A stretch of 64,000 nt of DNA, taken from assembly GCA_001661245.1 (NCBI GenBank), contig KV454015.1:537465-601464 (forward strand), in the 5' to 3' direction. Positions 13,098 to 57,000 of this stretch are shown piece by piece. The DNA is from Pachysolen tannophilus NRRL Y-2460. Lineage: Eukaryota. The translations under genes and the position numbers were made by a program. Position 1 is the first letter of the stretch. Each line of letters starts with the position of its first letter. The notes below the pieces were generated by a model that saw only the letters and a list, made by a program, of their open reading frames with translations, ran no database searches and was not told where the DNA came from.

Positions 13098-15374
13098 ATG
13101 GTTAGTCTGGCTAAAAAGAAATCTTCTAGTGCTTCTACTAGTGAAGTTTTAACAAGTAAATCTAAATTGGATGATGATATCTTGGTACCAGTTGAAAAAT
13201 CCAATTCAGCAATTGATTTGAGAAAAGAAAGCCAATATAGAGTTGTTTGTGGGATTTTAACTGTTATTGCTTTTTTCACGAGATATTATTCTATTAGTTA
13301 TCCTAATGAAGTTGTCTTTGATGAAGTTCATTTTGGAAAATTTGCTGCATATTATATTGAAAGAACTTATTTTTTTGATTTACATCCACCTTTTGCTAAA
13401 TTGCTTATTGCTGCTATTGGATATCTTGTTGGATTCAATGGTAAGTTTAAATTTGATAATATTGGAGATAATTATGTTACCAATAATGTTCCTTATATAC
13501 CTTTAAGATGTTTAAGTGCAGTTTTAGGAACATTGACAGTACCTGTTATGTTTAATACCATGAAAGAATGTGGTTATAGTGTGCAGACTTGTCTGTTTGC
13601 TGCTTGTTTGGTCTTGTTTGATAATGCTCATGTTGCAGAGACAAGGTTGATATTATTGGATCTGACTTTGATTTTGTCTGTTGCATTGTCTTTATTTTGT
13701 TATGTTAAATTTACAAAACAAAGAAATTCTCCATTTAAATTACAATGGTGGAAATGGCTTATCCTGACTGGTATCTCCTTATCATGTGTTATTTCAACCA
13801 AATATGTTGGTGTATTTACATTTTTCACTATTGGGTTTGCTGTACTTGTAGACTTGTGGGCTTTATTGGATTATAAGAAAGGATTAACTATAAAACAATT
13901 TTATAGACATTTTATCTCTAGATTTATTAGTTTACTCGTTTTACCATTTATCATTTATTTAAGTTGGTTCTATGTTCATTTTGCAATCTTAACAAAATCA
14001 GGTCCAGGTGATGCTTTCATGAGTCCTGAATTTCAAGAAACACTTGGTGATTCACCTTTAGCAAGAGAAGCTAAACTGGTTAATTATTACGATATCATTA
14101 CTATCAAACATAAGGATACTCAAGCTTACTTACATTCTCATCACTACCACTATCCATTGCGTTATGAAGATGGTAGGGTCTCTTCTCAAGGACAACAAGT
14201 TACAGCTTTTGAAGGTGAAGATATGTATAACAATTGGGAAATCTTACCTGTTAAAGAATATGATGAAAACGATAAATTGAACCATGCAGTTCGTCAAAGT
14301 GATGTCATAAGATTGAAGCATGTAGGAACTGGCGGTTATTTACTTACCCATGATGTTGCATCACCTTTGTTTCCAACAAATGAAGAATTTGTAGTTATTA
14401 ATCCAGAATTAGGAGATAATGAAAGATTCAACGATACTTTATTCAAATTGGATCCATTTGACAAGAAGAAAGGTTCTATCTTGAAGACAAAAGCTTCTTT
14501 AATTAAATTCTTGCATGTTCCAACAATGGTTGCAATGTGGACACATAATGATGAATTATTACCAGATTGGGGGTTCCATCAACAGGAAGTTAATGGTAAC
14601 AAGAATGTTCAAAGTTCTGAAAATATATGGTTTATTGAAGAAATTGTTGATTTGAGTGATGAAAGAAAACTGTACGTACCGAAATCAATCAAGACTCTTC
14701 CATTCTTGCTGAAATGGTTAGAATTACAAAAACAAATGTTTGAACAAAACAATAAGTTAACCTCTGATCACCCATTTGCTTCTGAGCCAGGAACATGGCC
14801 TTTCTCCTTAAGTGGTGTTTCCTTTTGGACAAACGATAATGAAAGAAAACAAATTTTCTTTATTGGAAACATAACTGGCTTCTGGATCGAAGTTTCTTTC
14901 TTGTGTTGTTATATCGGTTTGGTCTTGGGTGATCAATTAACAAGACAAAGAAATGTGAAACTTCTTAATGATAAATCAAGGTCTCGTTTATATAATACCT
15001 TGGGATTCTTTTTCATGGGTTGGTGTTTACACTATTTGCCATTTTTCTTAATGAGCAGACAAAAATTCTTACATCATTATCTTCCTGCCCATTTAATTGC
15101 AGCGTTATTTAGTGGTGGATTATTGGAGTTTATGTTCACTGACAATAGAGCAGATTCATTGAAATCAAAAGAAGAAATTACTGAAAGAAAACAGAAAGGT
15201 GGACAAAACTCTGTTAATAGCACTTTGTTAACACCATTGATTGTCTTACTTTTATCAGTATTAATATGGAACTTTATATATTTTGCTCCAATCACCTACG
15301 GTAACACCACTTTGTCAGTACCAGAAGTTCAACTGAGACAATGGCTTGGTATGAAATTACATTTTGCCAAATAA
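13098..15374 (+). CDS. PMT4: Dolichyl-phosphate-mannose:protein O-mannosyltransferase, PMT4 subfamily
   Basis: VVFDEVHFGKFA, FFDLHPPFAKLL, MIR domains, YPLRYEDGRVSSQGQQVT, RQKFLHHYLPAH. Confidence 0.93.
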   Translation: MVSLAKKKSSSASTSEVLTSKSKLDDDILVPVEKSNSAIDLRKESQYRVVCGILTVIAFFTRYYSISYPNEVVFDEVHFGKFAAYYIERTYFFDLHPPFAKLLIAAIGYLVGFNGKFKFDNIGDNYVTNNVPYIPLRCLSAVLGTLTVPVMFNTMKECGYSVQTCLFAACLVLFDNAHVAETRLILLDLTLILSVALSLFCYVKFTKQRNSPFKLQWWKWLILTGISLSCVISTKYVGVFTFFTIGFAVLVDLWALLDYKKGLTIKQFYRHFISRFISLLVLPFIIYLSWFYVHFAILTKSGPGDAFMSPEFQETLGDSPLAREAKLVNYYDIITIKHKDTQAYLHSHHYHYPLRYEDGRVSSQGQQVTAFEGEDMYNNWEILPVKEYDENDKLNHAVRQSDVIRLKHVGTGGYLLTHDVASPLFPTNEEFVVINPELGDNERFNDTLFKLDPFDKKKGSILKTKASLIKFLHVPTMVAMWTHNDELLPDWGFHQQEVNGNKNVQSSENIWFIEEIVDLSDERKLYVPKSIKTLPFLLKWLELQKQMFEQNNKLTSDHPFASEPGTWPFSLSGVSFWTNDNERKQIFFIGNITGFWIEVSFLCCYIGLVLGDQLTRQRNVKLLNDKSRSRLYNTLGFFFMGWCLHYLPFFLMSRQKFLHHYLPAHLIAALFSGGLLEFMFTDNRADSLKSKEEITERKQKGGQNSVNSTLLTPLIVLLLSVLIWNFIYFAPITYGNTTLSVPEVQLRQWLGMKLHFAK

Positions 15375-15688
15375 AACAAGAGAATAAAAGAAGAAATTTT
15401 CCTTTAATTTTTTTTTTTTTTCTTTTTGCAAGATAAAAGATTTACTTTGTTTCATTTTCATTTAATCCTCTTTATCATCACTATTATTAACTCTTCCTCC
15501 TTCATTTTTTTTTTCCTTTTCTTCGAATTTTTGATTTTTGTACTGTATATCAACGGTATTGACCAGACTATTTGCCTTTTTTCTTTTTTCTTTTTTTTTT
15601 TTTATTATATTTGTTCCCATATTAACATATCTCATTAAATAAATACGTATATATATCTATATCTATATCTTGCCGCACAGTTTATTAA

Positions 15689-16669
15689 TCAAATGCTTGG
15701 AAAGGGTAAACGTCTATGTATTCTATTAACAATCTCTAAGTATTCAAGTTCCATACCGATTGTTAAATAGCCATGTCTGATCAAGAAATCAATAATGACA
15801 CCAGCACAATTATATTTAAATTCTCCATTTGCCAACCTTGTTAAGACTTCATCAATACCCATTAGATAAAACTCTTGAACTTCATTATCAGTCGGTTTGG
15901 GAATTTTTTCAGGTTTCATAACCAAATCAAAAATAAATTCAACTTCAGGTTGGATCAATCCAAATTCATTGTTGTAAACTTCAGGTTCATGTTGATAAAT
16001 ATAAGAAATAACTCCATTTTGTTTTATATTTTCCCGGACATATGCTTCATCTAAACCAGCTTCCTCGTAACACTCTTTCACACATGTTTCAAAGACACCA
16101 TAAGGGTATCCCATACCACCAGCAACGGTATTGTCCAACATTCCCGGATATGTTGGTTTCTGATACGATCTTCTAGGTACCCATAATTTCAACTTTCCAT
16201 CTTCCGACAATTCAGGAGGTATATAACCATTAATATGGACACCATAAGTTATAACACCTAATAACATACTAAAAGCTCTCTCAACTAACAAATATGGGGT
16301 ATGAGAAGGATTATATACGACATAAAGCTCATTTCTCCAACCTTTCAATATATTGAAAGTATTCATCGATCTCCAAGCCTCTGCAATTTCTTTAAACTTT
16401 AAGTTTCTGGATTCAATTGTATCCAACAGCGGAATTATAGCAACAGTCCTCAGTACTTCATCAACACTCACACAATCAGAATGCTCTTTAAACCTCTCAG
16501 CAACTAGCGGTAACATATAACCAATTAATGTACCATCATGAGCTAAAAATTTATATGTAGATTTCTCAAATAAACCATAACGGTTCACTTCATGAGCATA
16601 AGGTAAAACATCTATCTTCCTAATCAATTCCACCAACGAGAACTTCTTATTACCTGATTCGGCTTCCAT
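15689..16669 (-). CDS. Nudix hydrolase, YJR142W/Tnr3-like
   Basis: GWRNELY, YGVHINGY, PGMLDNTVAGG and Nudix box ETCVKECYEEAGL. First ATG is at 16669. Confidence 0.88.
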   Translation of the reverse strand: MEAESGNKKFSLVELIRKIDVLPYAHEVNRYGLFEKSTYKFLAHDGTLIGYMLPLVAERFKEHSDCVSVDEVLRTVAIIPLLDTIESRNLKFKEIAEAWRSMNTFNILKGWRNELYVVYNPSHTPYLLVERAFSMLLGVITYGVHINGYIPPELSEDGKLKLWVPRRSYQKPTYPGMLDNTVAGGMGYPYGVFETCVKECYEEAGLDEAYVRENIKQNGVISYIYQHEPEVYNNEFGLIQPEVEFIFDLVMKPEKIPKPTDNEVQEFYLMGIDEVLTRLANGEFKYNCAGVIIDFLIRHGYLTIGMELEYLEIVNRIHRRLPFPSI

Positions 16670-17074
16670 ATTCAACTCTTTCAAAGACCTACCAATACCT
16701 ATCTATATATATATATATAAATCAATTATTATCAACCTTAAAAGAAGGTTTACTAGTACTATTTAATAGTACTAATAAACCAAAGGAAAGAAAAAACTTC
16801 TCCGTTTTGCATATGTTTTCTCCTGGTTGGAAAATCCAAAATTCTCCGTACCGTTTCCGGAAAACATTTGAGTTTGTTTTCTCCTTTTTGGAGATTTTTG
16901 TTTTTTTTTATTTTCTCCGTATCTCCGCCTTTTCTTCTCCGTTTAGATAACGAGTATATAAAATTTTAGGATACGGAAGAGGTGAATAAATACCAGCGAG
17001 TATTTAATCAATTTAATCATATTATTCATTTGTATTATTCCAAGATCAGATAGTGGCTTGGTGGTATATGGAAG

Positions 17075-22464: not shown

Positions 22465-22830
22465 CTAGAACATACATACATACGTACATATATGTATATA
22501 TATATATATAGATTAAAAAGACAAACACTGACTTACCAATACTCTGATACCAACTTTCTTGGAGCCAGGAAGCAATAAAGGACTAATACAAACACGAATT
22601 CAAGTCATAATCTCCACAAAGGTCGAATAGTAGCAACATAGTAAAGGGTGTCACGACACTACATATATGTGTCACGTGTCATGGCATCTGTTGCTCACTA
22701 TTTTTTTGAAAAGATAAAAGGTTTTCCCCTCTTATCTTTTAATAATCATTCCATTTATATGAAGATACTTTGAAATAGATCAAGATATGATTTTGGTTAT
22801 AGGGATTTGTATTTAGGGTTCAGTTAGATT

Positions 22831-28823: not shown

Positions 28824-31229
28824 TTAATGTTTTCTCTTTGCAACCACTGGATGTGAAGGATCTGAACCAGGCCAGGCTGAAATGATTTTTTTGTTTTTGA
28901 GCTTTTCTTGTTCGTATTCATCATCTTCATCTTCTTCCAGATTAGTAGAGGGATAGATGAAGTCACCTGCTGTATTTAAGAACGCGAGCTCTTTTTTAAT
29001 TTTGTGTATAAAGTCATCATCATCATAAACGTCATTTTCAATATAATTTGATTCATCAGTATAAGAACGAGTATTATTATTATTATTATTATTATTACCT
29101 TCTTCTGATGTTGAATCATGCAAAATTTTTTCTAATTTTTCTTTTAATACTAATCTTATGTTTTTTATTAATTTGTTACCAAATTTTTCATCAATGGGTT
29201 TATTTTTAATTAATAATTTCAACAATTGCTTTGTCATCTTTATGGTTTTCAACAAGAAATCGTTGTTGCTGCTAACCAATGGTGAGTTAAGAGTTATCAA
29301 GACAGCATAGTAAAGCAAAATGTGGATATGTACTGGACAATATTTTAAAGAATCAACAATATCTTTATCGTATAGTACCAAATTTAAGATATTAAAAGCA
29401 GACGAAGTAGCAATCTGAGTAGATACCTGTAAATTATTTTCAGATCTCAAAATACCATTTTCCGCTAGTTGTTTATTTTGATGATCTTCATCTATTTCTT
29501 CATCTATTTCTTCATCGCTTTCGTCCTCGTCATCATCCTCGTCATCATCTGAATTAAGTTCAGCTTCTATAAAACCTCCGGTATTATTTTCAGAAACCAC
29601 ATTTTCAAAATCATCATCAAACTTACTATTCCATTTAGGAAATTCACCACTTTTATCTCTCATACCTCTAATGAAATTCGAATTGATGTGAATTTTAGCA
29701 AAATTATAATATATTAAAGTAGACTTTGATGACCAAACGTTGCTATTGCTGAATCCATTCATTGATGACAACAACACTGTCCATCTAACCATCCATTTAT
29801 CCAACTCTAAATTTGTATTATATGGAATACCAAAGTGCGAAGGATCTAATAAATCCCAGGAATTGCCTTTAAATATTTCATTTGTAACTTGACTACATTC
29901 TATTTGAGAAACTAATCTTATGTCTGAAGTTAATGTTGAATAATTCTTAATCTTACTTGAAGCAAGTGAATCTTTCTTTTGAGATAATAATAACTTTCTG
30001 CAATGCCGTATTATGTTATCACTACTATCCATGATTGGTTTCCTATTAAAAGCTAGAGCTTGTTGACTATCCAATATATACAACAAGTACCATAGTTTTA
30101 ATCTTTTCGTAAAATCTATATCAGTTGAAATAACTTCACTTTCTCGGCTATCATTATTTTTCATGGGGAATGTATTGAATCCATAATTTTTCAGTAATTG
30201 TAATGCTACATTACAAAAACTTTGATTTAACCAAAATCCTGCAATACACAAACTGATTATAGTATTGTAAATTTCTGATTCATTATTACTATTATTACCG
30301 TTATCAAAATCTGGTAATATATCATCCAGATTATACATGATTTTAAAACTATATCTTTCCAAAAAATCTTTCAAAGGCAGTGATAAGTGTTTTAAATCTG
30401 GATGATGCACTGAAGCTATTGTACAAACTGTTAATAATAATAATGACGGTTGCCTATTAAACCATAATTTTTCAATATTAAAATCAGATAACTTGAAACC
30501 AAACAACTGAGGAGATATATTTCTTTCGAAAAATTCAAATAAAGATTCAACTTGTGAAAAATTTAATAAATTTCTAAAATCATATTCCTCGTTTAATTTT
30601 TTATATTCATTACTTGATATCTTTCTTCTTGTTGAAAAATTACTATTTTCTTGTAAATCCAGTCGAAGACTAGTGGCATTATTGATAAGATCATATAAAT
30701 TTTTCTCTTCAGCACTAGTTAACAGTGGAAGTTGCAACTGGTTAACTTCTTGGGGCACTGAGGAAAACCCAAGTAATGCTGGAATATCCAGCAGCAGAGG
30801 AACCCCAGAAGCAGCAGTAGTAGTAGCAGCAGCAACAGAAGCATTCGCTTGATTATTCTGCAAAAGGCTTAATATGTTGTCCAAAGTGTTATCAAATTTT
30901 TGAAGTCTATTTTCCACATCGTCCTTCCATATAGTACTATTATTATCGTTATGCTTTGCAAGATTATCACCATTTTCATCAACTTTTTTATAATTTGAAA
31001 CTTTGAACTCATAAACACACTCAGTATTAGTCTTCAAACATCTCTGACATGGGTTTGAGTAATCTCCATTGTTATTTTCACATTTGATCTTTGCCTTTCT
31101 ACATTCAAAACAGGCTTTTATTCTCCTTGGTATTTTATTACTCTGATGATTATTTACTTTCTTTCTTTTTAACGACCAAGTCTGTAGTAAAGAAGATGGA
31201 ACCTTACCGTTGGTGACTTCTGGAGCCAT
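28824..31229 (-). CDS. Zn(II)2Cys6 transcription factor, Urc2/PriB-like
   Basis: ACFECRKAKIKC...PCQRCLKTNTECVY; LELDKWMVRW and KSTLIYYNFAKIH. ATG at 31229. Confidence 0.82.
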   Translation of the reverse strand: MAPEVTNGKVPSSLLQTWSLKRKKVNNHQSNKIPRRIKACFECRKAKIKCENNNGDYSNPCQRCLKTNTECVYEFKVSNYKKVDENGDNLAKHNDNNSTIWKDDVENRLQKFDNTLDNILSLLQNNQANASVAAATTTAASGVPLLLDIPALLGFSSVPQEVNQLQLPLLTSAEEKNLYDLINNATSLRLDLQENSNFSTRRKISSNEYKKLNEEYDFRNLLNFSQVESLFEFFERNISPQLFGFKLSDFNIEKLWFNRQPSLLLLTVCTIASVHHPDLKHLSLPLKDFLERYSFKIMYNLDDILPDFDNGNNSNNESEIYNTIISLCIAGFWLNQSFCNVALQLLKNYGFNTFPMKNNDSRESEVISTDIDFTKRLKLWYLLYILDSQQALAFNRKPIMDSSDNIIRHCRKLLLSQKKDSLASSKIKNYSTLTSDIRLVSQIECSQVTNEIFKGNSWDLLDPSHFGIPYNTNLELDKWMVRWTVLLSSMNGFSNSNVWSSKSTLIYYNFAKIHINSNFIRGMRDKSGEFPKWNSKFDDDFENVVSENNTGGFIEAELNSDDDEDDDEDESDEEIDEEIDEDHQNKQLAENGILRSENNLQVSTQIATSSAFNILNLVLYDKDIVDSLKYCPVHIHILLYYAVLITLNSPLVSSNNDFLLKTIKMTKQLLKLLIKNKPIDEKFGNKLIKNIRLVLKEKLEKILHDSTSEEGNNNNNNNNTRSYTDESNYIENDVYDDDDFIHKIKKELAFLNTAGDFIYPSTNLEEDEDDEYEQEKLKNKKIISAWPGSDPSHPVVAKRKH

Positions 31230-32970: not shown

Positions 32971-34200
32971 TTATTCAATGATACGAGTGATTAAACCTGT
33001 ACCAACAGTTTTACCACCTTCTCTGATATTAAATCTTTGACCAACTTCTAAAGGAGTTGGATGTAAAAGGGAACATTGCATTTCAACGTTATCACCTGGT
33101 AAGATTTGTTGAGAATGGTCAACATTTTCACCTTCAGGGAAAGTTAATATAACAGTAACATCTGCTGTTCTAATAAACATTTGAGGTCTATAATTTTCAG
33201 AAAATGGAGAATGTCTACCACCTTCTTCTTTTGTTAAGATATATAATGAAGCCAAGAATTTTTTATGTGGTTTAACAGTACCTGGTTTACACAAGACCAT
33301 ACCTCTCTTGATATCATCACGTTTAATACCTCTAAGTAAGATACCAGCGTTATCACCAGCCATTGCTTGATCCAATTCTTTTTTAAACATTTCTATACCG
33401 GTGACAATAGTTTTAATTGGAACATCATTATAACCAACAATTTCAACTTCTTCACCTTTTTTCAAATTACCACGTTCAACTCTTCCAGTAACAACGGTAC
33501 CTCTACCAGAAATTGAAAAAATATCTTCAACAGGCATTAAAAATGGTTTTTCTAAATCTCTTTCAGGAGTTGGGATATGTTCATCAACAGCATCCAATAA
33601 TTTCATGATAGCATCTTTACCAATTTCTGGACGTTTACCTTCCAAAGCACATAAAGCCGAACCCATAATGACTGGAGTATTATCACCATCAAATCCATAA
33701 GAAGTTAATAATTCTCTCATTTCCATTTCAACCAATTCTAACATTTCTGGATCATCAATAGTATCAACTTTATTAACAAAGACAACTAAATGTTGAACAC
33801 CAACTTGTCTAGCCAACAACAAGTGTTCTCTAGTTTGAGGCATTTGACCATCAGAAGCAGCAACAACAATAATAGCACCATCCATTTGAGCAGCACCGGT
33901 AATCATATTTTTAATATAATCAGCATGTCCAGGACAATCAACATGAGAATAATGACGCTTAGCAGTTTCATACTCAACATGAGCAGTTGAAATAGTAATA
34001 CCTCTTGCTCTTTCTTCTGGAGCCTTATCAATAGCATTATAATCCAAGAAATTGGCACCACCTTCTGTTGCTAATACTTTAGTAATAGCAGCGGTTAAAG
34101 TGGTCTTACCATGATCAACATGTCCAATTGTACCTATATTAATATGAGGCTTTGAACGATCAAAAGTAGCAGCAGAACGAGCAGATTGGAAAACAAAAGT
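32971..34200 (-). CDS. TUF1: Mitochondrial elongation factor Tu, main body; the native 5' end is not on this strand
   Basis: [43 protein letters not shown], ending [17 protein letters not shown]. Confidence 0.95.
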
Positions 34201-34409
34201 TTCCTTTTCTGGAAACTCAAAATTTTTCACCAAAAAAAAAATCATCAAAAAAAAAAATTTGGGAGTTTCTCTGCTAATAGGAACAACATAAATTGTTAAT
34301 AAATATTAAATAAAGGTATTAAATTAAATTGAATTAAAAAAGAATTTTTGTTTTTTTTTTTTTTCTTTTTTGCCGTAATTTATCTTTTTGGCTCAGGAAA
34401 AGAAGAAAG

Positions 34410-35450: not shown

Positions 35451-35483
<33 letters not shown>

Positions 35484-35529: not shown

Positions 35530-36830
35530 ATGTCGAGTCAACATAAGGATAAGCTGGACATAAATGTTCATATTGATTCGGTAGTTAATAAACTTAAGAG
35601 AAGACAAATTTCTGGGTCTTATACTGTTGCTATTGAAACATGTCAATTACTTATGAGAGTTATTTCAGCTTCACGTTGGAATCATCCAGATCAGTTAATT
35701 GATATAATACTGCAGGTTGGTAAGAAGTTGGTACAGGCTCAGCCGAGAGAGTTTTCATCGGGGAATATTGTCAGGAGAGTGCTATCTTTAATTAGAGATG
35801 AGATGAATGATGATAATGATGTTAATAATGGCAACGGCGGTAACAACAACAATAATAATAATAGTAATTATATCAATAATAGCGTTAATAATGAAAATCA
35901 ACTGATGATTAGTTCAATGTTTGCTTTGTTAACTACAAATGAAAATAAAAAAAATACCGTTAGCAATCAGCAAAATTTACAACAACAAAAATCACAAGTT
36001 TCATCTCTGTCTCTGCAATTGAAAAAAAATACACATACTCAAGATTTTAGATCAATTATAATACAAGGAATAAAAGAATTGATAGATGAGATTTCATCAA
36101 TCTCGGAGAATATCGAGACTATGAGTGTGGATTTGATCCATGATAATGAAGTCTTGTTAACTCCTACTCCAGGTTCAAAAACAGTTTTCAATTTTCTTCT
36201 GAAGGCAAGGTTAAAGAGAAAATTTACAGTCTTGGTAACAGAATGTTTCCCAAATGAAACTGAAGAAGCCCACAAATTCGCCAAGAAATTGGCTCTGCAT
36301 AAAATAGATACAGTAGTAATTCCTGATTCAACTGTATTTGCAGTAATGTCCCGTGTTGGGAAAGTTATTGTTGGTGCAAGATCAGTCTTTGCCAATGGTG
36401 GATGTGTAACTAGTTCGGGAGTCGCTGCAGTTTGCGAATGCGCAAAAGAATACAAAACACCTGTTTTTGTTGTTGCTGGCCTCTATAAATTATCTCCTTT
36501 ATATCCATTTGATAGAGATAGTTTAGTAGAAGTTGGTAATTCAGGTAAAGTCATGGAATGGGAAGATAGCCAATTAGTTGGGAATTGTGAAGTTACAAAC
36601 CCTCTTTTTGATTACGTTGTTCCTGAAAATATTGATATTTATATCACTAACGTGTATGTATCCATTTACAAATTAAAATTGAAAAAAAAAAAAAGTTGTT
36701 CAAATTTTTGTTTTCTTCATTTACTAACAATTAATCCTAATTATTTTTTTTTAGCGGTGGATTTTCTCCAAGTTTTATATATAGAATAGTTCTAGATAAC
36801 TATAAAGCTGAAGATGTTAATCTAGAATGA
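35530..36830 (+). CDS. GCD7: eIF2B beta subunit, two exons (35530-36653, 36755-36830)
   Basis: AQPREFSSGNIVRRVL, VFAVMSRVGKVI, GLYKLSP. A GTATGT...TACTAAC...TAG intron restores the expected end ITNVGGFSPSFIYRIVLDNY. Confidence 0.93.
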
Positions 36831-37183
36831 TTGATATGGCTAAATGGTATATAGAATCATGCTACGCCCTGTGCCTTGCTCGGTCAAGTTTTAACTTTCT
36901 TGATCTTGAGCTGGATACTTTTTTTTTCATATACATTTATTTAAAAAATCGTAATGGGCAATAAGAAACTCTTAAAAGTTGGTATTTTTGAGTACGATTA
37001 TACCATGGTCTAACCCAATGCTATACATCGTAATTATCTGACTTTACATCTACTCTCATATATATATATTTTATATATTTTATATATATCATTTAATAGT
37101 ATTAATCTCTGTCATTAGTACCAACTTTTGTTGTGCAGAAAATTTTTCAGCAAAAAAAAAACGTAAATTTAAAGTGAAACAAA

Positions 37184-37295: not shown

Positions 37296-38495
37296 ATGGT
37301 CAATTCTTTAGAAAGAGAAGAGCCACATTATTTTGGTGCTGGTCCAGCTTTACTTCCAACTCTGGTACTCCAACAGGCTGCGTATGATCTTTTAAATTAT
37401 CAAGGTTCAGGTTTAGGTATTGGTGAAATTTCTCATCGTTCAAAACCTGCTACTGATGTTATTAACCAGTCAAAGGCAAGGTTAGTACAACTTCTTGATA
37501 TTCCTGAAGATACTCATGAAATTTTTTTCATGCAAGGTGGTGGAACTACTGGGTTTTCATCAATTGCATCAAATTTAATGGCCAATTTTTTAAATAGAAA
37601 AGGTAAAAGTGGTAAAGCTGGTTATGTTATCACTGGTTCTTGGTCTCAAAAATCTTATGAAGAACTGAATAGGTTGGGAGTTGATACTGAAATCATTGCC
37701 AATGCTGCCAATGCTCGTGGTTCCAATTCTACCAAATTTGGTACAATTCCAAATGTTGATTCATGGTCTAATAATGTTTCTAAAGATGATACTGCATATA
37801 TATATTATTGTGATAATGAAACAGTTCATGGGGTTGAGTTTCAAGAATTTCCCTTTGAGAAGTATGAAGGAATTCCAATTGTTGCAGATATGTCATCTAA
37901 TTTCTTGTCAAAGCAGATACCAATTAGCAAATATGGTTTAATTATGGCAGGTGCACAGAAAAATGTTGGAATTGCTGGTTTAACAATTTATATAATTAGA
38001 AAAGATCTTATCCCTCAACCTTCTGATCATAAATTATTAATTGAAAATGGTATTCCTATAACACCAATCGCATTCCATTACCCATCAGTTATAAAAAATA
38101 ATTCTGCTTATAATACAATTCCAATCTTTACATTACAAGTCATTAATCTTGTTTTGGAAAACTTAATCACAGTTAAAGGTGGTTTACAAGCCCAAGAAGA
38201 TTTAAATCGCAAAAAAGCTGAAAAGTTATACAGTGTCTTGGATAAATATCCAGAAATTTTTAATTTACCAGTGGAAAAATCTGTTAGAAGTAAAATGAAT
38301 GTAGTATTTACCATTTCAGGAGGTGAAATAAAAGAAGGAATTTTCTTAAAAGAAGCTGAAAAAAGGTATAAATTAACTGGATTAAAAGGTCACAGATCTG
38401 TTGGTGGTATGAGAGCTTCTTTATATAATGCTGTTGATACCACCAGTGTTGATTTATTATGTAAATTTATTGAAGAATTTGCAAAAGAAAATTAA
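37296..38495 (+). CDS. SER1: 3-phosphoserine aminotransferase
   Basis: YFGAGPA, EISHRS, NETVHGVEF, DMSSNFLS, PLP-lysine AGAQKN, LKGHRSVGGMRASLYNA. ATG at 37296. Confidence 0.95.
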   Translation: MVNSLEREEPHYFGAGPALLPTLVLQQAAYDLLNYQGSGLGIGEISHRSKPATDVINQSKARLVQLLDIPEDTHEIFFMQGGGTTGFSSIASNLMANFLNRKGKSGKAGYVITGSWSQKSYEELNRLGVDTEIIANAANARGSNSTKFGTIPNVDSWSNNVSKDDTAYIYYCDNETVHGVEFQEFPFEKYEGIPIVADMSSNFLSKQIPISKYGLIMAGAQKNVGIAGLTIYIIRKDLIPQPSDHKLLIENGIPITPIAFHYPSVIKNNSAYNTIPIFTLQVINLVLENLITVKGGLQAQEDLNRKKAEKLYSVLDKYPEIFNLPVEKSVRSKMNVVFTISGGEIKEGIFLKEAEKRYKLTGLKGHRSVGGMRASLYNAVDTTSVDLLCKFIEEFAKEN

Positions 38496-38540: not shown

Positions 38541-39540
38541 TTACTGCTGATTAATACCACTAACATAATAAACAATCTCACAATTCTCATTCTCATCTAA
38601 ATAGCAATGCAATACTAATGCTTCCATCTCACTAATGATTAACACAACATTTGAAGATAATTCACAGATATTGGCTCCTAATTTCCAGTCTCGAAGTTTA
38701 ACCATGACATTAATTGGTTCATCTCTATCCCTCTCTCTTCCTCTGATATTAGTTTCATCTTCTTGATCCTCGTTGCTATTATTGATTTGCTGCACTGGTA
38801 GTCTTTCTCTCCAAGATGCTGTTATTTTTCTTGTATCTTCATTTATTGTTAGTCCCAAGTATCCATTCTTTGTAGCTGCAATGTTTAAATACTCTGCTTT
38901 TTTATATCGTTCTACTCTTTTGAAAAGAGATACAATATCTCTATTTAACTTCATAAATACATCCACATTACTCAACTCTGGTTCTCTAATTCTTTCGTCA
39001 CTTTCTTTTTTCAATAATCGCACAGGAATACGAAACGTATGACTTATACTTGAACTCACGCTCACATGCTCATTATAAAAAATAGATAAAGTAGCCAACG
39101 ATTTTGATGCTGAAATTACTTGTTTAGATCCTCCCGTTCCATCAGCATTATTTGCTGAAGGGTTCTTCCTCTGAAGTCTAATCGATAATCCATACGAGTT
39201 TGTACGTTCAAAGTTTTTCAATACTTGATACAATGGCTCGATATTGATCTCCATTGAGATAGTATTATCTCTTATAGATTCTACCTCGTAGATATCAAAA
39301 ATCTCTTGGGATAATTTACACCATACTTGTGGCTCATTCAAAGAAGCTGAAATAATATGTAAATTCTGCGGAGTAAATCGTAATATACAAAATTTACGAA
39401 GACTAATGATAGCACCCAAAGTATCTAGAAATTAAAAATAATGTTAGCACAATTTTTATACAATCCGAAGAATAGTTAATAATAAATGAAAACTTACTTC
39501 TCAAAGATTCTGTAGATGCTGTTGATATCTTCAACTTCAT
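38541..39540 (-). CDS. MEC3: 9-1-1 checkpoint clamp subunit Mec3/Hus1, two exons (39540-39498, 39424-38541)
   Basis: A GTAAGT...TGCTAAC...TAG intron (39497-39425) gives MKLKIST...NTLGAIISLRKFCILRF; EPQVWCK and HTFRIPVRLL..ERIREPEL. Confidence 0.82.
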
Positions 39541-39684: not shown

Positions 39685-42670
39685 TTACAATATTTTGATT
39701 TTTGAATAAATACCATCGTTATAACCCTTTTGAAGGCCAGTGTCACTGTCGTTGTTGGAAAATCTTTCCCTTTGTAATGTCGAGATGTTGCTCAAGACAT
39801 CACGAGCTTGTTCTCTAACCAATAAATCGTTATCTGTTTCAACAAGATACTTCAACAAGTTGACGATTTTTTTACCATAATTTGGGGGGAAACCTTCAAT
39901 TCCACCTGGTCCGGTGACTAAATCATTTACTAGCACTACTGCCGACCTTCTCATTATTGATTCTTCACTAGAAGTTTCCAAGTTTAGTATACCTAGCACA
40001 CAGTCAAAACAATCTGGTAATTTGGAAATTAAACCTATAGGATTCACTTTACAGCAAACACCTAAAAGTGACATTGCAGACATTCTTAATCTGTTATCCA
40101 GCTTCAAAGAAGTTTCATGCTCTGATTCATTTATAGTAGATGGAATTCTTATTAAAGATAACGTAGCGGATGAAACGAGATCAGCAACGTTTCCGGTAAA
40201 AGTATCATTTGCGTTTTGAATGAATCTTAAAAGAACTTCACCTATTCTTAACCTTTCGTCTAATTCCTGTTTTGGATTGATATAAAAATCTATCAATATA
40301 GGTAACACATTGTTTTTATCAAACTTTAACAACGAATCTAATCCTTTAATGACATTCAAGTAGATAAACGGATCAGGGTCTTTAAGTTGGAGCAAATTCA
40401 ATTCAATTACAAACTCCAATGAGACAACATCTGATCTCTTATCAATTAATTGTCTAAGTAAAAATAACCCATGAGCTCTAATTGGTACCAATGGATCATT
40501 CAACGAGGTGATTGCCCTTTTTAAAGTTTCTTCATCCTTTTCTCTTGAAGATTTTGGCCTTAAGGTCTCTTTGGCTAATATCGATTGGATTCTATTATAC
40601 AATGACTCTGCTGACTTGTTTTGATTAGATAGAGATAGCAAAAGTGTTGAAATTTCTTTAAGTACTGAAACAGAACTTTCATTTAACTCTGTTGTTGTTG
40701 TCTCCGATAATATAGCGGATAATAACTCTAATACTACACTCAATGACTCACGTAACTCATCCTCTTCATCATCTGAATCTTCGTCATCTGAATCTGCACC
40801 TTGTTCAATAGTTTTTTCCATTATTTTCATATCCTTTTGTTTGTTCTCTTTTTTCACAACAAGATTCTGAGTATTATTTATCAAGACATTTTTAACAACT
40901 TCCAACATGTCATCAGGAGACCTTGACAATTTTTCCTTATACTTGTCAACAATGTTTTCTAATAATCTTAAATCAATCAACATTATAAAAGGATCATCTT
41001 CACCATCTTGTTGCAAATCAATTTTAGAATCGCTAACATTTAACCATCTTTTCAAAATCAACCCAAACTCTTTTTGAAGTAATTCTTCATTTAAATCTTT
41101 CAAGATATTCATAAATAAGTCAACTGCAATATCTAAACTATCAAAAAGATTATTATTAGTTATATTGTTATCTTCTATGGTTGTTTTTTTCTTGATAACA
41201 ATTAATCCATTCTCACCATTTTCAAAAATCCAATTTTCACCTGAGATTAATAATAAATTCTTGGCTATTGTATCTAAAAATTCCAAATCATTGGTAATTG
41301 TGAAAAAGGAAATAAATATACTTTTAGGAACTTCAATATTTCTCTTTGTACTTTTAACATATATTGTATAACTCCAAAGTGGTAATATTAATTGTTGAAA
41401 TAAACATTTCAATAATTCTGGAGAAGATTTCTTAGTCAATGAGATAATGACATTTACAGCATTATTCAAATCTACTTCACTTGTCAAAATTTTATTTTCT
41501 GAAATTTTTGGATTAAAACATTCCCATATTTTTGAAAAAATGAAATCTTTAACAATTAAAGATTTTTTTTCAAACAAAGTTTCCACTATATTACATGCAA
41601 CAGATGTCAATATGGGTCTATTTATTAATACCAAGATATCATATAATTGTTTACCAACATTTCCAAAATAATCTGCAGAATTGAATTGCCTTGGCTTACT
41701 CATTATGACATTACAGATATGATCTATTTTTTCTATATTTATGTCTTCATCTTCTCTCAAACCAGCAACAAATTCAATTAACGATTTGACACCATCTGCT
41801 CTTTCCACAGTTAATAAAGATAATCTTGAAGAAACAAATTTTTTCAACCAAGGTTGGGAATAAGGTTGTAATAATAATGTATATATGCTAAATAATTGGA
41901 AAGTATTTGATAATTTTTCAATTTGAGTAAATTGAGTCTGGTATTTTTCATAAAAAGCTTTATTTGAATTTGGATTACACATCAACGATATCGATCCTAC
42001 TAATAAGTCGGTATATCCCGAGCCAGTCATTAATAAGTTTTTAACATCTCCTCCACCATCTATTATTTCATATAATTTTGTTACTATTAAACTTAACAAT
42101 TTCTCCGAATCCAGTGAAGAAGAAGAAGAAGAAGGAGATGATGATGATGATGATGACGTAATTTTAGTTATCTTGATTTTATTTTTACCAAAACTCTTTA
42201 ATTGTCTTCTTTCTAAAGGAATACCAACATTCACAGGTAACGCCGAGTAAATACCTTCAATTATCACAAGATTTAAAACTGATCCAAAAATTTTCATATC
42301 AGGTAAAGATATAGTGATAATATTTTTATCCTTTGCCTTTAATTTTTTTTTCATTTGATAATTTTTGAATTTGTAAAAGATAATCCAACAATTTATCTAT
42401 AACGGTAAATCTCATATAAAAATCATGATTAACATTATTTCCATTAAAATTCAAATCATTACAATTTTTTCCATCTAATTTAATATATAAATTTTTAATT
42501 GTATCTTGATTATTATTATTATTATTATTATCATCATCATTTTTAATAAATTTTGCAATCTCTTCAAATAACTTATCTAACGGGGTATTTGCCCTTAACT
42601 TTGGATTCAATAATTGCTCTTTTAAAGAGTTTCCCATATCTGAATTATCTCCATTCCCATCATTAGGCAT
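39685..42670 (-). CDS. RTP1: RNA Pol II assembly/import factor Rtp1 (TANGO6 family); frameshift at an A9 run (42343-42351)
   Basis: LNDPLVPIRAHGL, LKDPDPFIYLNVIK, LDERLRIGEVL, RMSAMSLLG. Removing one A joins the 114-aa and 889-aa ORFs. Confidence 0.85.
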
Positions 42671-45069: not shown

Positions 45070-45182
45070 GGTATATAACCTTTGGTATAACTATCGAGAA
45101 AGAATTTTGTATATTTAATTATTATTATCATCATTATTATTTTTACCTTTTCTTAATTTTTTTTTTCTTTTTGTTATAAATC

Positions 45183-45213
<31 letters not shown>

Positions 45214-45280
45214 ACATTACCCAAGTTCAAAAAACTTATTATTATTAAAGCTTGTAGCTTGTAACTTGTAAATTGATTCC

Positions 45281-48561: not shown

Positions 48562-51525
48562 CTTCTCTTTTTTTTTTCTTGAAAAAGGAAATATCTCTAA
48601 ATGAGTTGAGGTGAGCTTGTTGGATGAAAAGATAAATTACAAAAGATCTGTTTTCGAAGCAGGAAATAACTCATCTTTTATACAATCTACCTTTTTGTCG
48701 AGCTTTCTCGTAAACTTGCTTCGCTTCAAGTTTTTTCATTTCTTTTTCATTTCTTTTCTTTTCTTGCTTGGTGCATTGTTTACAGAATTTCACTTTGCAC
48801 TCTGCTGTGGAAGAAGCAGGGAAAAAGCTCAACCAATTACTATTGGAATCTTCAAATTATCATACACAAGGCAAAGAGTTGTGTAAACAAAAAGTCAAAA
48901 AACCACTGCAAGATTGGTGAAACGCGATCTTTCGCATGCACAACACGTCAAAACCTTAAACTTAAAAGAAAAATATGCATCTTGGACAATTAACTTTAGA
49001 TTTGCAGGAGTTCATTACGCTTCTCAGGGAATTAGCGAATAGTTCGGTAGACAATCGTGGTTTTTTTAGGTGATCTTCAAGCATCTTTCGGTGGTCAAAA
49101 ATGAAAAATTAAAAAATATTTTCTGTGAATTGTAACTACGGTGCATATAGAAAACCAGAAAACCGAAAGAAAAAATAAAATAAAATAAACTAAAGCGTTT
49201 GATAGAGGTGCTGAGTACTGTTTAGAAAAAATTTTTTTCTAGCGGTTTCGTGTTTTATTTAAAAGACCTCAAAACACGATTAATCAAACATGAGATGATC
49301 TCGGTAACCGTTGAATTTGACGTTGTGTTCAGTTGAATGGTTGACTTTGATCGGGTTTTATTATTATTGTGGGACATAAACAAACAAAAAGTACCTTTAA
49401 TGTTTTCATTCTTTTTTTAAGAGTCAGTAATTAAATAAGTAATCCTCGTTAAGCTTATACTACAGGATCATACTATGTTACGTATGCACCACGAGTACTG
49501 CACCAGCCGAATTTTTTTGGAATATATAACATTACTTTTCGGCTTGGAGGACCCGATTGGGACCATTTTTTACCAGGATTGAGAGCGCATGTAGGTAGCT
49601 TCCTTGTACACTTTAACTCAGTTCCTGGGACTCTGGTACCAAAGAGAAGCGAGAGCAAAAATCAAAAGAAATATTATTCACGTTTTGAAAACTTGTTTGG
49701 GGCCTCTCTAACATCATAGGTCAGTGGTAAGTTTAATGTTTACATTTTCTTTCAAGTGTCATAAACGTAAAACTCCCACAGATGTGTATATATTATAAAT
49801 AAACAAATGATTATATATAATACCGAGCAATAGAAGCATATTAAAGTTTAGAGAGACATACATATCGTCGTATACATTTATTTTATAAATATATGGTAGT
49901 ACAAACAAACAAATAATCTGGATCTGCGTTGCGTGCAAACTTTGTCTTTCTCCACCCCCCACTCAACTTGATTGAGCATTAAGTCTGAATAAGAGATGAC
50001 AATGACTTATCCTTACGAAACAGAAAGATTTGCACTCAAGCCAGTTAGTTATCCGCTGAACAGAACTTAATATCTTATATACCATTTCCTATTATAAACA
50101 AACTTTACAGTACAATACAATACAATAAAATGAAATAATATATATATATATATATATGCTTAGTCAAGCATGCCTAAAAAACCTGGGAAGTTCACTACTG
50201 GGGTCATATTGTCATAATCATGGTATTAAATAAACTGTAAAAAAATTCCACTGTTAGCCATTTCCTCTTTCGTCAATCTACAATAGGAAATCTAATTAGT
50301 TAGTCAGCCTTTTGCTAAGCTTAGATTCGGATCTTTGCTCTTTGATCTCACGCACTACCCAAGTGAGCCTTCCATTTAAGCTATTGTGCATGTGGCTCAA
50401 TTGGTAATTCTTTGCTCAATTGGGAAGGGTTCCCTTTTTCGGCAAGATCTTCTTACGGGAAAAGGCCCTTTAGGGACCAAAATAAATACATGACGCATAA
50501 TATAACAAATTTTCCCTGCCACGCCACAGGACCCAAGTGAAGACAATTAAACTAACTATAGGAGAAGCTTATGCTTAGGATTGCAATGTTTATGGGTGGT
50601 ATTAAATATCAGAGAAAACAATAGAGCTAATAAGTATAGTACAGACAGGGTATAATGAGATTGATGTCTCTTTTTTTTTCAAGTTAAAAATATCAAAATA
50701 ATCCTAATGTAATTGGAGAGAGGACACGGGCATTAATATTAATATTAATAATAATATTTTTCATTTCTCATTTCTCCTTTTTAAGCTATCTGACAGGTTT
50801 TTTCTCTCTCTCTAACTTTATTTTTCTGCAGTGTCTTTTTTACTGGCTTTGGCCTTTTTTTCCAACTAACTAGATTGAGATATTGAGACATTTGTGGGTG
50901 AGATTCTGGCAATTTTTTAACTATTCAGAGTCTATCCATGCTAGATAACATTTTAGTGAAATTGTCCACCAAGATTCAAATGCACGTAATTTAACACAGT
51001 ACATATTATATTATTTTCAATTGTTTTTGCATCCATTGCAGGACTCTCAATAAACTTGTATAGCTTTTGATGTCATTGCATATAATATACATCTTTCCAA
51101 AATACCTCATGCCCAGATACTTATAATTTTACCCGAATACTTCAGGTGTTGACATGGGAAACGATGGTTGAAATTAATCACAGAAGAGGCCCTTGCCGAC
51201 TTGCAAAAGTATTTGGGAAGGTAGAAATTAATTTTCTATTATTCCTTTGACGTCAATAGCAAATTGTCGCTTTGAAAAAGTAAACTATACTGATAAAAAC
51301 ATGATTATGAATATGACTTTCAATTAATATACAATATATCCTTGAACCAAGGAATATATGTAATGTGAGGGATTCTTTTACAACTAAAAAAAAAATAAAA
51401 ATAGAAAAATTATTTTTAGCTGATGCAATGAAACTAATGATGATGCTTATTAGAACTTGCTACAAAGAATACAAAAAAAAAAAAATAGAAAATAGAAATT
51501 TTTAATTTTATCGAGAGAACTTTTG

Positions 51526-53271
51526 TTAGCGACCACCACCAAAAAGTCCGAAGAACCCCTTTTTAGCTTTATTTGATTCCTCTTCATTTGCTCCTCTTTG
51601 TACTTCTCTCTGTTCATTTTTATTAGTATCATCGTCATAGGTGATATAGTTGAAGGCAATGTCAAACAAAACCGGTTTGACGTGGATCGGTTCGAAATTG
51701 TTTTCCATATTAACCACTTTGTTTAACGTTTCATCTGCCGAACCACCGATAAACTTATTTATGTTATTTATTAGGAAATCATCACTAGTCTTTCTGGATT
51801 CAAAATAATTACATAAGATATGAACCTTGTTCAAATTACGTTCTACTTCCAATTTCAAAGTTTCAACGTCTTTTGAAATTGGCAAGTTAGGGATATTAAT
51901 ATGATCTATGACGTCGGTTGATTCCAAGAAATTACAAAGCTGGTTTGCCTTGCTTAGCAACAGCAATGATTCCTTTAACTTTCTTGAAGTCAAGTAAGAT
52001 TCAGCTAATTTAGTAATTTTGATGATTTGATAATATGATTCAATGGTTTCTAAAGCTTTCCACATCTCTTCATTGTTATATACACCAGGCAAATCTTTTA
52101 ATTCTTGCACTGCCCTCAAGATATTTTCCAATATTCTCAAGATATCTTTGTTTTTCAATAATACAAAATTTTTTGACAAGTTTTTCTTTTGTTTAATGCT
52201 CAATTCTTCAATCAAAGTTAAATCTCTTCTGATTTTCAAAAAAATCAATTGATATTTGATATAGGCCAATATGACTTGATTATCTTCTATTTCTTCATCA
52301 GTTAAATCATTAGTTTTCTCCATTTCAGTACTATGATGTTCCAATACTTCTTGCCAAGCCAATAATGCTGGATCGTATGAAGAAACATTGACAAAATGTG
52401 GTAAAGTTTTTGCCTGAGCAAACATAAGCAATCTTGAAGTATCTTCAGATCTAATATCAGCTGAATATTTTGACCATTGAATTTTTTTCAACAAATCAAT
52501 TGACATCTTATCTTCTGCCTTGGTAAACGCAGCATCTTTGGAATTAACAATGTCAACAAGTTCTTTTAAACAAGGAATGGTATTATCATTGATATGGAGA
52601 CGAGCAATATTATTCAAATCAGGTGTAGCTGATAAGGACAGCCCATTAATGTGATATAATGATAATTTTAAAGATGGATCAACTATAGTATCAATCATTT
52701 CAACAAAAATTTCCTTATTTGAAATATTATATTTAGAATTTTTATCACTTGACAGTTTATCTAAAAATTGTAAACCTATCCTAGCAATTGAATATGAATA
52801 TATTGAATCATTCCAATTTTTTTTAAAAACTGCATAAGAACCAAAGACAATTGCAGCATAAATTAAAAATTCTAATTTAATAAATAAATTTTTTTCATCT
52901 TTGATGATTTCTAATAATTTCTTACAATTTATCAACGATTTTTTATACTTAGACCTAATGAAAACTTCTTTGGATTTTGAAGATTGAACTTCTAATACAG
53001 TCTTGGTCTCTAATGCATGAATAATATCACGCTCAATGTTATACAAAAATAAAAGTCCATATTTCGGGTTGGAATTATAATCAACACTAGTCACCTTGGA
53101 CTGTTTTTCTTTAGACTTATAGTTCTTGGTATCTCTTGTATGAATCTTTAATTCTTTCCTCAATTTACCTAACCTCTTATTTATCCTCTTTCTTTGATTA
53201 TGGTAGTCATTAGCAGAAGTTAAGAAAAGATTAATACGAACACCAAAAGTGGTACTCAAAGGGGAATCCAT
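51526..53271 (-). CDS. SRP68: Signal recognition particle subunit Srp68
   Basis: MDSPLSTTFGVR...DYHNQRKRINKRL, KPVLFDIAFNYI, C-terminal KKGFFGLFGG. ATG at 53271. Confidence 0.9.
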   Translation of the reverse strand: MDSPLSTTFGVRINLFLTSANDYHNQRKRINKRLGKLRKELKIHTRDTKNYKSKEKQSKVTSVDYNSNPKYGLLFLYNIERDIIHALETKTVLEVQSSKSKEVFIRSKYKKSLINCKKLLEIIKDEKNLFIKLEFLIYAAIVFGSYAVFKKNWNDSIYSYSIARIGLQFLDKLSSDKNSKYNISNKEIFVEMIDTIVDPSLKLSLYHINGLSLSATPDLNNIARLHINDNTIPCLKELVDIVNSKDAAFTKAEDKMSIDLLKKIQWSKYSADIRSEDTSRLLMFAQAKTLPHFVNVSSYDPALLAWQEVLEHHSTEMEKTNDLTDEEIEDNQVILAYIKYQLIFLKIRRDLTLIEELSIKQKKNLSKNFVLLKNKDILRILENILRAVQELKDLPGVYNNEEMWKALETIESYYQIIKITKLAESYLTSRKLKESLLLLSKANQLCNFLESTDVIDHINIPNLPISKDVETLKLEVERNLNKVHILCNYFESRKTSDDFLINNINKFIGGSADETLNKVVNMENNFEPIHVKPVLFDIAFNYITYDDDTNKNEQREVQRGANEEESNKAKKGFFGLFGGGR

Positions 53272-53590
53272 AATCAAACTCTCTCTTTACCAGTTACTAC
53301 CTCTCCAAACTAAACCGTTTCCAAAAAAAGATAAATATATATATCTATATATATTCAAGTACTAATTATAAATATTATCCAACTACTATTCCGTTCTTCT
53401 CATACTAGGTTTCGTCGTCTTCGTCGTCTTGGTCGTTGTCGTCGTCGAGTATAAAATTTTCAACCTTCTTATTATTAGCAAACTGTGCACTACCAAGCAG
53501 TTGAGTCTTATCGTCCAGGACAGCAAACGACTGGTGAAGAGAATGCTATTGATTCATTGATGGATACCTTCGTTTTTTTCGGTATGGGTG

Positions 53591-54052
53591 ATGGAAGTTT
53601 TTGTAAGTGATCCTTGGTTTGGTTTGTTGGCTAAACCTAAACAAAAAATTGAAGAGTTTTTACTATTGAAAAATGTGGATTTTAAAAATGCAGTTATTCG
53701 TAGAGTTGGTGATGGTATAACTTACATTTTGAAAAATGACAACCTATCGTTTTTATTTATTGTGAATGAAGAAGGTATGGAGTTATTAGATAGTATTGAT
53801 TTCTATAGATGTAGATCTCTGTATTTTGTTGATGATATAGGGGATTTGCCATTACCTTTCAATATAAGTAAAGACGATACTGGAGCATCGCTAGTTGCCA
53901 AGTTTGGTGAGCCTTTACAAAAAGGTGGTGGATTCAAAGAGAAGATCAATATATGGTTAAGATGGGAGTTTTTACAAGTTGAAATAGATAATAAAAGCTG
54001 GGAACAGGGGAAAGATGCGAAATGGGTTAGTCTTACGATTTTCAAAGGGTAG
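53591..54052 (+). CDS. Uncharacterised small protein
   Basis: 153-aa ORF with globular composition (GASLVAKFGEPLQKGGG...IWLRW) that fills the gap between SRP68 and PEX6. Confidence 0.65.
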   Translation: MEVFVSDPWFGLLAKPKQKIEEFLLLKNVDFKNAVIRRVGDGITYILKNDNLSFLFIVNEEGMELLDSIDFYRCRSLYFVDDIGDLPLPFNISKDDTGASLVAKFGEPLQKGGGFKEKINIWLRWEFLQVEIDNKSWEQGKDAKWVSLTIFKG

Positions 54053-54081
54053 ATATGAAAGTAATAAATATGTATAAATAT

Positions 54082-57000
54082 TTAATTTTCTAAGAAATTA
54101 TTATCTCCACCATTGGAACTTCCATTAGTTATGTAGTCGATTGAATGATTTTTTTGTTCAATTTTTTCTCCACCGCTTCCTTCAAAATTTTGTCTTACTC
54201 TTAAATAATGGTCTAATTCCTCAGCAGAAACAGATGGAATTATTTCGTTTCTCAGTTTAATGAAATCTTCTTCTTTCACTAATACTTCAACATCTTGTGA
54301 TGAGGCAATATTATCAAACCAGTATCTTAAACTGATTTTTTCTTCTTCTTTTTCTATAGTTGCATTGTGGTCTTGGAACATTCGATCAACGTCACTTGCT
54401 GTTCTTGTCATTGCATTTAACATCGCATCTGAACAAAGGGCATAAAAATCGGCACCTGTGAAATGAAATGGACAACTTCCAGCGATATGTGATAAATTAA
54501 TTTGTGAGTCCATTTGAAATTTTCTGGTTAAAGCTTCTAAAATCTTTGTTTGTTTAGTATGAGTATCGGGAATTCCAAGGTAAAGCATTTTATCAAATCT
54601 ACCAGGTCTCAATAATGCTTCATCCAATAAATCTGGCCTATTAGTTGCACCAACAACAAATACACCATCACCACCTTCAGAGTCACTCATTCCATCCAAT
54701 TCTGCTAATAGTTGGGAAACTATACGATCCATCACACCACCGGAATCACCTTGGTTACCTCTCTTGGGAGCAACAGAATCTAACTCGTCAAAAAATACAA
54801 CACAAGGTTTAGCATCCCTAGCTTTTTGGAAAACTTTTCTAACATTTGCCTCTGATTCTCCAATATACATATTTAATAATTCTGGACCTTTGACAGAGAA
54901 AAAATTTAAAGCAAAATTTGTGGCAATAGCTTTGGCTAATAGTGTCTTACCTGTTCCAGGTGGACCATAAAATAATATTCCACTTCTTTTCTTTAAACCG
55001 TTATTGAACAAATGCGGATGCCTTAAAGGCATGTCAATTGTATCCAAAATTTCATCTTTAACCATATCTAAACCACCAACGTCTTCCCATTTAACGTCTG
55101 GAATTCTAGGTGCACCGATAGAATCGCTAAATTTACTTCTGGCATTACCAATAGCTTTATCAAAATCTTCAGGTGTCAAAGTTATATAACCACCATTGTT
55201 AATGATTAGTTGAGTTAAAGTAATAGTTAGTTTTTCAGCTAAAGACTCAAATCTTTCAATTGCAAAAGATTTAGCAGCTCCAACAATTGAAGATAAATCT
55301 CTAGGTGTTAACCCAGCACTTTGCAAAGCCAAGTGATCAAAAGACAAATCTTCTCTTGGTAAAAATTGGTAATCTGTTAAAGAAAAATTAGTGCTATCGC
55401 TGTCCCCAACAGAAATTAAAAATCGAAAAATTTGTTTTCTTTCAAATTCGGTCGGAACATTCAAATTAATTTCAAACCTCAAGTTTGATCTAACAGTATC
55501 AGATAGACAGTCTGAGTCGCTTGTAGAAACTATGAAAATAACTCCTTTTTGTTTAGAATATTCATCAATCAATTCTGCAACCTTCAAATTAAGTGACTCC
55601 TTTTGTTGATTAGATTGCAGATTCAGTTGTTGGTCAACTTTCTTAGCTATTGCTTCAATATGCCTAAGATGTATTATCAATGGTGTAGCACTTTCAACAA
55701 TTCTATCCAATTTACCTCTCAAGGTTCCAATGGTTTTGACATCAGAACTGGGATTTAATACCTCATACGCATCTAATTCAACTAAATGAACACCTAGTTC
55801 AATTGATAAATTCTTTACTAGCAATGATTTACCTATACCCCTTGACAGACTACTTAATAGTACTGTTGTTTGCAAATTAAAAGATCGATTTCTATTTAAC
55901 AAGGAAGTCCCAATCAATTTCCGGAGAGTTTTTGCGAATTGGAAACTATAAGTGTTATTCAGCAATTTAACATTTGGAAATTGGAACAATCTTTCTAAAC
56001 CTAAATATTCATACCAATTCAATAACTTATAATCAAGAATTGGTGGAGCTTCTGTAACAATTCCAGACTGAATCATTCTTGTACGCGATGAATCAATAAT
56101 ATATTGGCCATTATGATCGTGATTGTTATTATCGCCAACAACTTCTGTTACCTTGAACCAGGCAACGGCATCACAGTTGCCACCTGGTATCACACTTGGA
56201 AATTCTGGTTTATTCACATCATCTGTGTTCAGCAGCGATTGCAAAGTCTCATAGGTACTGAAAATTGACCTTGCCAATATTGTATCAATTGGAATTGGAA
56301 TAAGTTGTCCTTCATAGACAACTCTATTCTTAACTTCAAAGAAAGATTTTAAATTGGAGAGAAATAAATGCTGAAGAGTACGATCTAAAGTGATCGGTGA
56401 AGATACTCTGGCAATATTTACCTGTTTTGCAATAGGTACGTTGAATGATTGCTGGGGTTTTGAAATACGGGATATCCATACTGAAAGTTTTTCAAATTCG
56501 AAATTTGGAACTAACAAATTCTTATATAAATTTAATATTGAAACGGAGGATAAGTAGATAGTATTGGATTCAAATTCATTAGGTTCCAAAAATGAAAAAA
56601 CTTTAAAGGTTCGAATCTGGGATTTGTCAGTATCTTCTGAAGTTGAAATTCGAACTTTGATGTAGTCACCACTAAAACATCCAATCTTGTTTAACTCGTT
56701 AATTTTGACAAACCCGAATATTTGATCGTCTTCCTTCCCTTCTTGAGAGGGTGTAGGTGCAAAATTGTTTATCTTGAAAAGTAACGATTTCAAATTAAAC
56801 TTCAATTCTTTTAATTCTGTTTTTGGGAAATTCTCCTGTTCTTCTTCCTCATCGGATGACTCCAATGAGAGATAATCTAAGGTGTTTAAATTGATGGTAT
56901 CAATTATTGGCTCATTAGCCGATACTGCTTTTTGATAAAAAATTTCATCGTTATCCCTTCTAACAACAGTAACATTTGTTTCCTCTGTCAATAATCCTTG

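Follow-up and report, generated by a model that had tools for sequence, protein, structure and literature searches.

How is the codon CUG translated in the genes of a 64-kb stretch of contig KV454015.1, sequenced from the budding yeast Pachysolen tannophilus NRRL Y-2460 and referred to here in its entirety as the window? A sequence-only reading of this DNA, which pointed to in-frame CTG codons in the genes PMT4, SER1 and PEX6, had proposed that CUG is read as alanine (NCBI table 26) and had placed the organism with Pachysolen and its relatives. We conclude, with a probability of about 98%, that the window is nuclear DNA of P. tannophilus (order Alaninales) in which CUG encodes Ala, and CUU, CUC, CUA, UUA and UUG encode Leu. 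The decisive support for CUG as Ala comes from the identity of the species together with published mass spectrometry. Information regarding the coordinates of the genes and codons discussed is summarized in Table 1.

The species can be recognized from exact protein identities. The best match of the GCD7 product (among the best 120 of 358 homologs) is PACTADRAFT_43645 from P. tannophilus NRRL Y-2460, which is identical to the window protein over its first 375 residues and has Ala at 7/7 of the CTG positions. The final 24 residues of this database protein are encoded in a second exon behind the GCD7 intron, and the spliced product matches the database protein. An exact look-up of PMT4, SER1 and PEX6 (NCBI, UniRef, nr) returned the Ala versions for 3/3 proteins, and ten further queries from the window, translated under table 26, had exact entries in 7/10 cases; the SRP68 open reading frame (ORF) and both halves of a frameshifted HSP90 gene were left unmatched by this look-up. 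P. tannophilus is listed within Alaninales in the NCBI taxonomy. The sequence-only reading was right about the residue, the translation table and the placement, and the window proteins match entries of P. tannophilus NRRL Y-2460, not merely those of a relative. Its further statement that an ORF track is mistranslated at every CTG is true of a standard-code reading of the window and untrue of the public protein records, which already carry Ala.

The decoding of CUG as Ala was described in P. tannophilus in 2016, and NCBI table 26 has this species as its type case (PMC4937558). In the parts of that report drawn upon here, mass spectrometry assigned Ala to 97.2% of the 907 CUG positions with ion support (8 others being mixed and 18 having other residues), and CUG was about as unambiguous as AUG (PMC4937558). 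The peptide data tabulated in a later study are similar in kind, with Ala at 243 of 256 CUG sites, Leu at 3 and Ser at 0, and with 13 sites in total being non-Ala (PMC5951914 Supplementary Table 1). The same study widened the clade to Nakazawaea and Peterozyma (PMC5951914), and the formal diagnosis of Alaninales now includes CUG as Ala (PMC11182611). The origin of the reassignment is debated; the decoding in the present day is not. Our literature search found no Codetta-based work on CUG in tannophilus.

All four of the CTG codons cited in the sequence-only reading (viz. two in PMT4 and one each in SER1 and PEX6) are present and in frame. Homologs for these and two additional genes were collected with CTG masked as X in the queries, giving 119 homologs for Pmt4 (the best 120 of 2119, self removed), 119 for Gcd7 (the best 120 of 358, self removed), 93 for Pex6, 150 representatives for a metallophosphoesterase/nucleotidase ORF designated NT5 (the best 150 of 1219), and 61 loci, reduced to 45 distinct rows, for Ser1. 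Homologs taken from assemblies may carry mistranslated CTG codons of their own, and the Leu counts of some columns, which were not corrected for this, may be inflated. Residue 189 of Pmt4 falls in a column with A in 103, S in 16 and L in 0 of the 119 homologs, and A is also present in the solved Pmt4 sequence 9e61. For residue 1101 of Pex6, the 59/93 homologs with a residue at this position have A in 55, S in 2, P in 1 and L in 1. Residue 124 of Ser1 is A in 41/41 of the distinct rows with a residue there, every one of them on a GCN codon, and in the 5 structure alignments shown. The Ala that the sequence-only reading had given for orthologs at these three sites is also what the best solved-structure matches contain (RLILLDA for Pmt4, SFEEAKRL for Ser1 and, in both 8u0v and 8c0v, EDFLKA for Pex6). 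The fourth codon, at residue 746 of Pmt4, lies in a mixed column (A 47, K 30, S 19; n = 119) of little diagnostic value.

A pooled test with codon controls was carried out on PMT4, SER1, PEX6, GCD7 and NT5, which together contain 30 CTG codons. Of these, 25 are alignable and 5 (PEX6-644, PEX6-646, GCD7-160, NT5-22 and NT5-648) were excluded for having too few aligned homologs. Columns with one residue in at least 80% of the homologs were considered strongly conserved. This applies to 4/25 CTG columns, a small number: three are A columns and the fourth is an R column, and none is an L or S column. In the tabulation of ortholog residues at CTG codons, which the sequence-only reading had put forward as a check, no strongly conserved column is dominated by Leu or Ser. 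Among the strongly conserved control columns, L is present in 26/27 for CTA/CTC/CTT and in 89/98 for TTA/TTG (115/125 for the five other Leu codons together), A is present in 58/62 for GCN, and the Ser codons have S in 47/69 and A in 4/69. From these control rates, the chance of at least three Ala among four conserved columns is approximately 7e-4 if CTG is Ser and 2e-5 if it is Leu, both values being post hoc because the three conserved Ala columns are the sites that the sequence-only reading had picked. Among the codons with 10 or more columns in a per-codon profile score for four genes, CTG alone has a best residue that departs from the standard code; AGC (8 columns) narrowly misses its standard residue. 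The best residue is L for each of CTT, CTC, CTA, TTA and TTG, and these codons are still Leu in the P. tannophilus window.

Several of our results weigh against an Ala reading, or against its being established from this DNA. The two added genes, GCD7 and NT5, contributed no further conserved Ala column, and the fourth conserved column (GCD7-61) has Arg in 114/119 homologs. Ala is the most frequent residue at 4/25 CTG columns vs. 91/135 GCN columns (p = 2.4e-6), and Leu is the most frequent residue at 4/25 CTG columns (viz. PMT4-4, PMT4-166, PMT4-223 and NT5-131, the last of these being a mixture of L/V/Q/I/M/A). The pooled log-likelihoods over the 25 columns are -5.1 for A, -5.2 for S, -9.6 for Q and -22.5 for L, so that Ala and Ser are tied, and Ala scored above Leu in 97% and above Ser in 50% of bootstrap resamples. 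Single structure alignments with distant homologs place a CTG opposite L at residue 161 of a peroxisomal ABC transporter, opposite V at Srp68-437 and opposite G at Tsc1-230; structure searches with ATG101 returned low-complexity matches only. The exact protein matches reflect species identity and annotation practice, and are no independent proof of the decoding. Taken alone, the window rejects Leu and indicates Ala through three sites only, its CTG codons being mostly at variable positions, and the evidence that it provides by itself is thin.

The tie in the pooled score is the principal argument for reading CUG as Ser (table 12), as in the Candida/Debaryomyces clade. Ser is also the most frequent residue at PEX6-442, NT5-294 (S 69, A 47; n = 137), SER1-23 and GCD7-162, and an alignment-only study from 2014 put Pachysolen under the Ser code (PMC4986446). 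However, Ser is found in 0/4 of the strongly conserved CTG columns vs. 47/69 for Ser codons, the invariant column at SER1-124 is Ala, and table-12 translations of PMT4, SER1 and PEX6 are present for 0/3 in the protein collections. The absence of Ser from all 256 CUG sites in the published peptides refutes this reading for the species (PMC5951914), and its probability here is vanishingly small. The earlier statement that Ser is the poorer fit is borne out at the three conserved sites but not across the 25 alignable ones, where Ala and Ser are level. Under the standard code, CUG would be Leu and the Ala columns would record ordinary Ala-to-Leu substitutions, and the behavior of the five other Leu codons makes this very difficult to accept: Leu is found in 0/4 of the conserved CTG columns vs. 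115/125 of theirs, and is most frequent at 4/25 vs. 197/308 columns (Fisher p = 4.8e-6). The pooled score for Leu is 17 log units under that for Ala, standard-code translations account for 0/3 of the proteins looked up, and Leu was recovered at 3/256 CUG sites in the peptides (PMC5951914). A Leu reading can draw upon the four columns in which Leu leads, a share of 42% for Leu at GCD7-224, and the L opposite residue 161 of the ABC transporter, and we give it next to no credence.

It is also conceivable that CUG is mainly Ala yet ambiguous, Leu being inserted at some sites to a meaningful extent. Several CTG sites do lie in Leu/Ile-rich columns, a few non-Ala sites are on record (the 8 mixed and 18 other positions of 907, PMC4937558; 13/256, PMC5951914), and low-level insertion of other residues was not excluded by the authors (PMC5951914). 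However, Leu-rich columns are also expected from one-base changes of Leu to Ala codons (CTN or TTG to CTG), odd residues occur at a similar background level in the standard-code species of the same Supplementary Table 1 (PMC5951914), and the comparison with AUG cited above speaks for unambiguous decoding. Such Ala/Leu ambiguity is very unlikely because of the published peptides. A specific form of it, in which a wobble-reading tRNA-Leu would insert Leu at sites such as GCD7-224, PMT4-166, PMT4-223 and ABC transporter residue 161, at a rate that is functionally relevant and perhaps dependent on conditions, and would thus produce Ala/Leu statistical proteins, is likewise a long shot.

The reading of CUG as Ala, which we favor, is accompanied in the literature by a mechanism. 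A copy of an alanine tRNA gene would have gained the anticodon CAG, and the resulting tRNA(CAG) would be charged with Ala because alanyl-tRNA synthetase recognizes the acceptor stem (G3:U70 and A73) and not the anticodon; no tRNA-Leu(CAG) would remain to compete with it. The tRNA(CAG) of Pachysolen has been described as a mutated alanine tRNA that has kept G3:U70 and A73 and is without the long variable arm found in tRNAs for Leu and Ser, and it was proposed that tRNA-Leu(CAG) was lost and the codon then captured (PMC4937558). A killer toxin selecting against tRNA-Leu(CAG) has been put forward as the driver (PMC5951914). The number of tRNA genes identified by ARAGORN in the 64-kb window is 0.

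The window has a GC content of 31% and is gene-dense, with 33 ORFs of at least 100 residues whose Pfam matches are those of ordinary budding-yeast genes. In-frame CTG codons number 117 over 29 coding segments with 15,337 codons in total, and 22/29 segments have at least one CTG; each of the 117 would be read as Ala, and CTG would then make up 15.6% of all Ala codons in these segments. CTG accounts for 117/418 CTN codons (28%) vs. 433/4777 G-ending codons (9%) in seven other four-codon boxes, and the corresponding values for 12 control loci, fungal-like and of unknown code, are 5–19% vs. 8–24%. As an independent test this codon usage is suggestive, and it says nothing on which residue is inserted. 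In reassigned clades, CUG codons tend toward poorly aligned regions (PMC5951914). The genes in the window that are expected to be highly expressed (viz. ribosomal S4, mitochondrial EF-Tu and HSP90) have no in-frame CTG, and transcription-factor-like and low-complexity genes have 9–15 CTGs each. The lack of CTG in the former group would fit decoding by a minor tRNA. In a gene for a Zn2Cys6 transcription factor, three consecutive CTG codons follow directly upon an Ala/Thr-rich stretch and would form a short poly-Ala under table 26. A suggestion that CTG-Ala codons arose mainly via a single base change from Leu, Gln, Arg or Met codons was unsupported, as CTG (22) and GCN (54) columns with less than 50% Ala were alike (p = 0.43; 9/22 vs. 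17/54, p = 0.44).

Table 1. Genes, codons and other features of the window (positions are those of the whole stretch).
Feature	Position	Strand	Remarks
PMT4	13098..15374	+	Pfam PMT, MIR, PMT_4TMC; 8 in-frame CTGs
CTG, Pmt4 residue 189	13662..13664	+	Conserved Ala column
CTG, Pmt4 residue 746	15333..15335	+	Variable column, not diagnostic
SER1, phosphoserine aminotransferase	37296..38495	+	Structure matches, Pfam; 2 in-frame CTGs
CTG, Ser1 residue 124	37665..37667	+	Invariant Ala column
PEX6	54082..57555	-	Structure matches, Pfam; 8 in-frame CTGs
CTG, Pex6 residue 1101	54253..54255	-	Conserved Ala column
GCD7 (eIF2B beta)	35530..36830 (3' end approximate)	+	7 CTGs
CTG, Gcd7 residue 61	35710..35712	+	Conserved Arg column
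GCD7 intron	36654..36754	+	GTATGT, TACTAAC at 36722, TAG; near the 3' end of the gene
Metallophosphoesterase/nucleotidase ORF (NT5)	6993..8942	+	5 CTGs; extra test gene
Ribosomal S4	9772..10503		No in-frame CTG
Mitochondrial EF-Tu	32971..34245		No in-frame CTG
HSP90	59984..62124	+	No in-frame CTG; split by frameshift
Three consecutive CTGs	30791..30799	-	Zn2Cys6 transcription-factor gene
H/ACA snoRNA snR36	36864..37051	+	Between GCD7 and SER1
HUS1-like ORF	38541..39254	-	Begins at profile position 75
RTP1-like ORF	39685..42670	-	Overlaps short upstream ORF in another frame (42326..42670)
Stretch of ~3 kb	48562..51525		Upstream of CAP-domain (PRY-like) gene

Some other characteristics of the window were also noted. 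The CTG at GCD7-61, which stands in place of a conserved Arg, is a non-conservative change whichever way CTG is read. A frameshift in an A-rich run near 60747 breaks the HSP90 gene: the reading frame that runs from 59984 stops at 60772, and the rest of the protein is encoded in a different frame, continuing into the ORF at 61135. This probably reflects a slip of the assembly within a homopolymer, and a CTG at 60767, outside the true HSP90 frame, was left out of our counts. Of the 7 sequencing runs listed, 5 contain 98% of the sampled words of 54000–62200, and no RNA run is listed among those that contain them. At the gathering threshold, the small nucleolar RNA (snoRNA) snR36 (88.8 bits) is the sole Rfam match. 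For the RTP1-like and HUS1-like ORFs alike, a 5' exon may have been missed or a frameshift may be present, and the stretch at 48562 is without an ORF of at least 100 residues or an Rfam match.

The closest known system is P. tannophilus table 26 itself, which agrees with the window in species (by protein identity), codon, residue and the unchanged state of the other Leu codons, no difference being found in the parts of its description used here (PMC4937558). The wider CUG-Ala clade or Alaninales (Pachysolen, its type genus, Nakazawaea and Peterozyma) shares the scarcity of CUG in conserved regions, as far as the portions of these accounts considered here extend (PMC5951914, PMC11182611). The CUG-Ser1 (Serinales, table 12) and CUG-Ser2 (Ascoideales) codes are alike in being independent reassignments of CUG by an anticodon-mutated tRNA, but they differ in their residue, Ser, and in deriving this tRNA from tRNA-Ser, whereas the conserved CTG columns of the window are Ala and not Ser.

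The reading of CTG as Ala in this DNA is already known, and no departure from table 26 is seen in the window, which adds no new knowledge because the code has been on record for this species since 2016 and a yeast order is now defined by it. The reassignment of CUG to Ala is one of the few reassignments of a sense codon in nuclear genes. Standard-code readings give wrong proteins because 22/29 coding segments hold a CTG; hence, all genes of the P. tannophilus genome need table 26, and other findings from this genome need checking for mistranslation.

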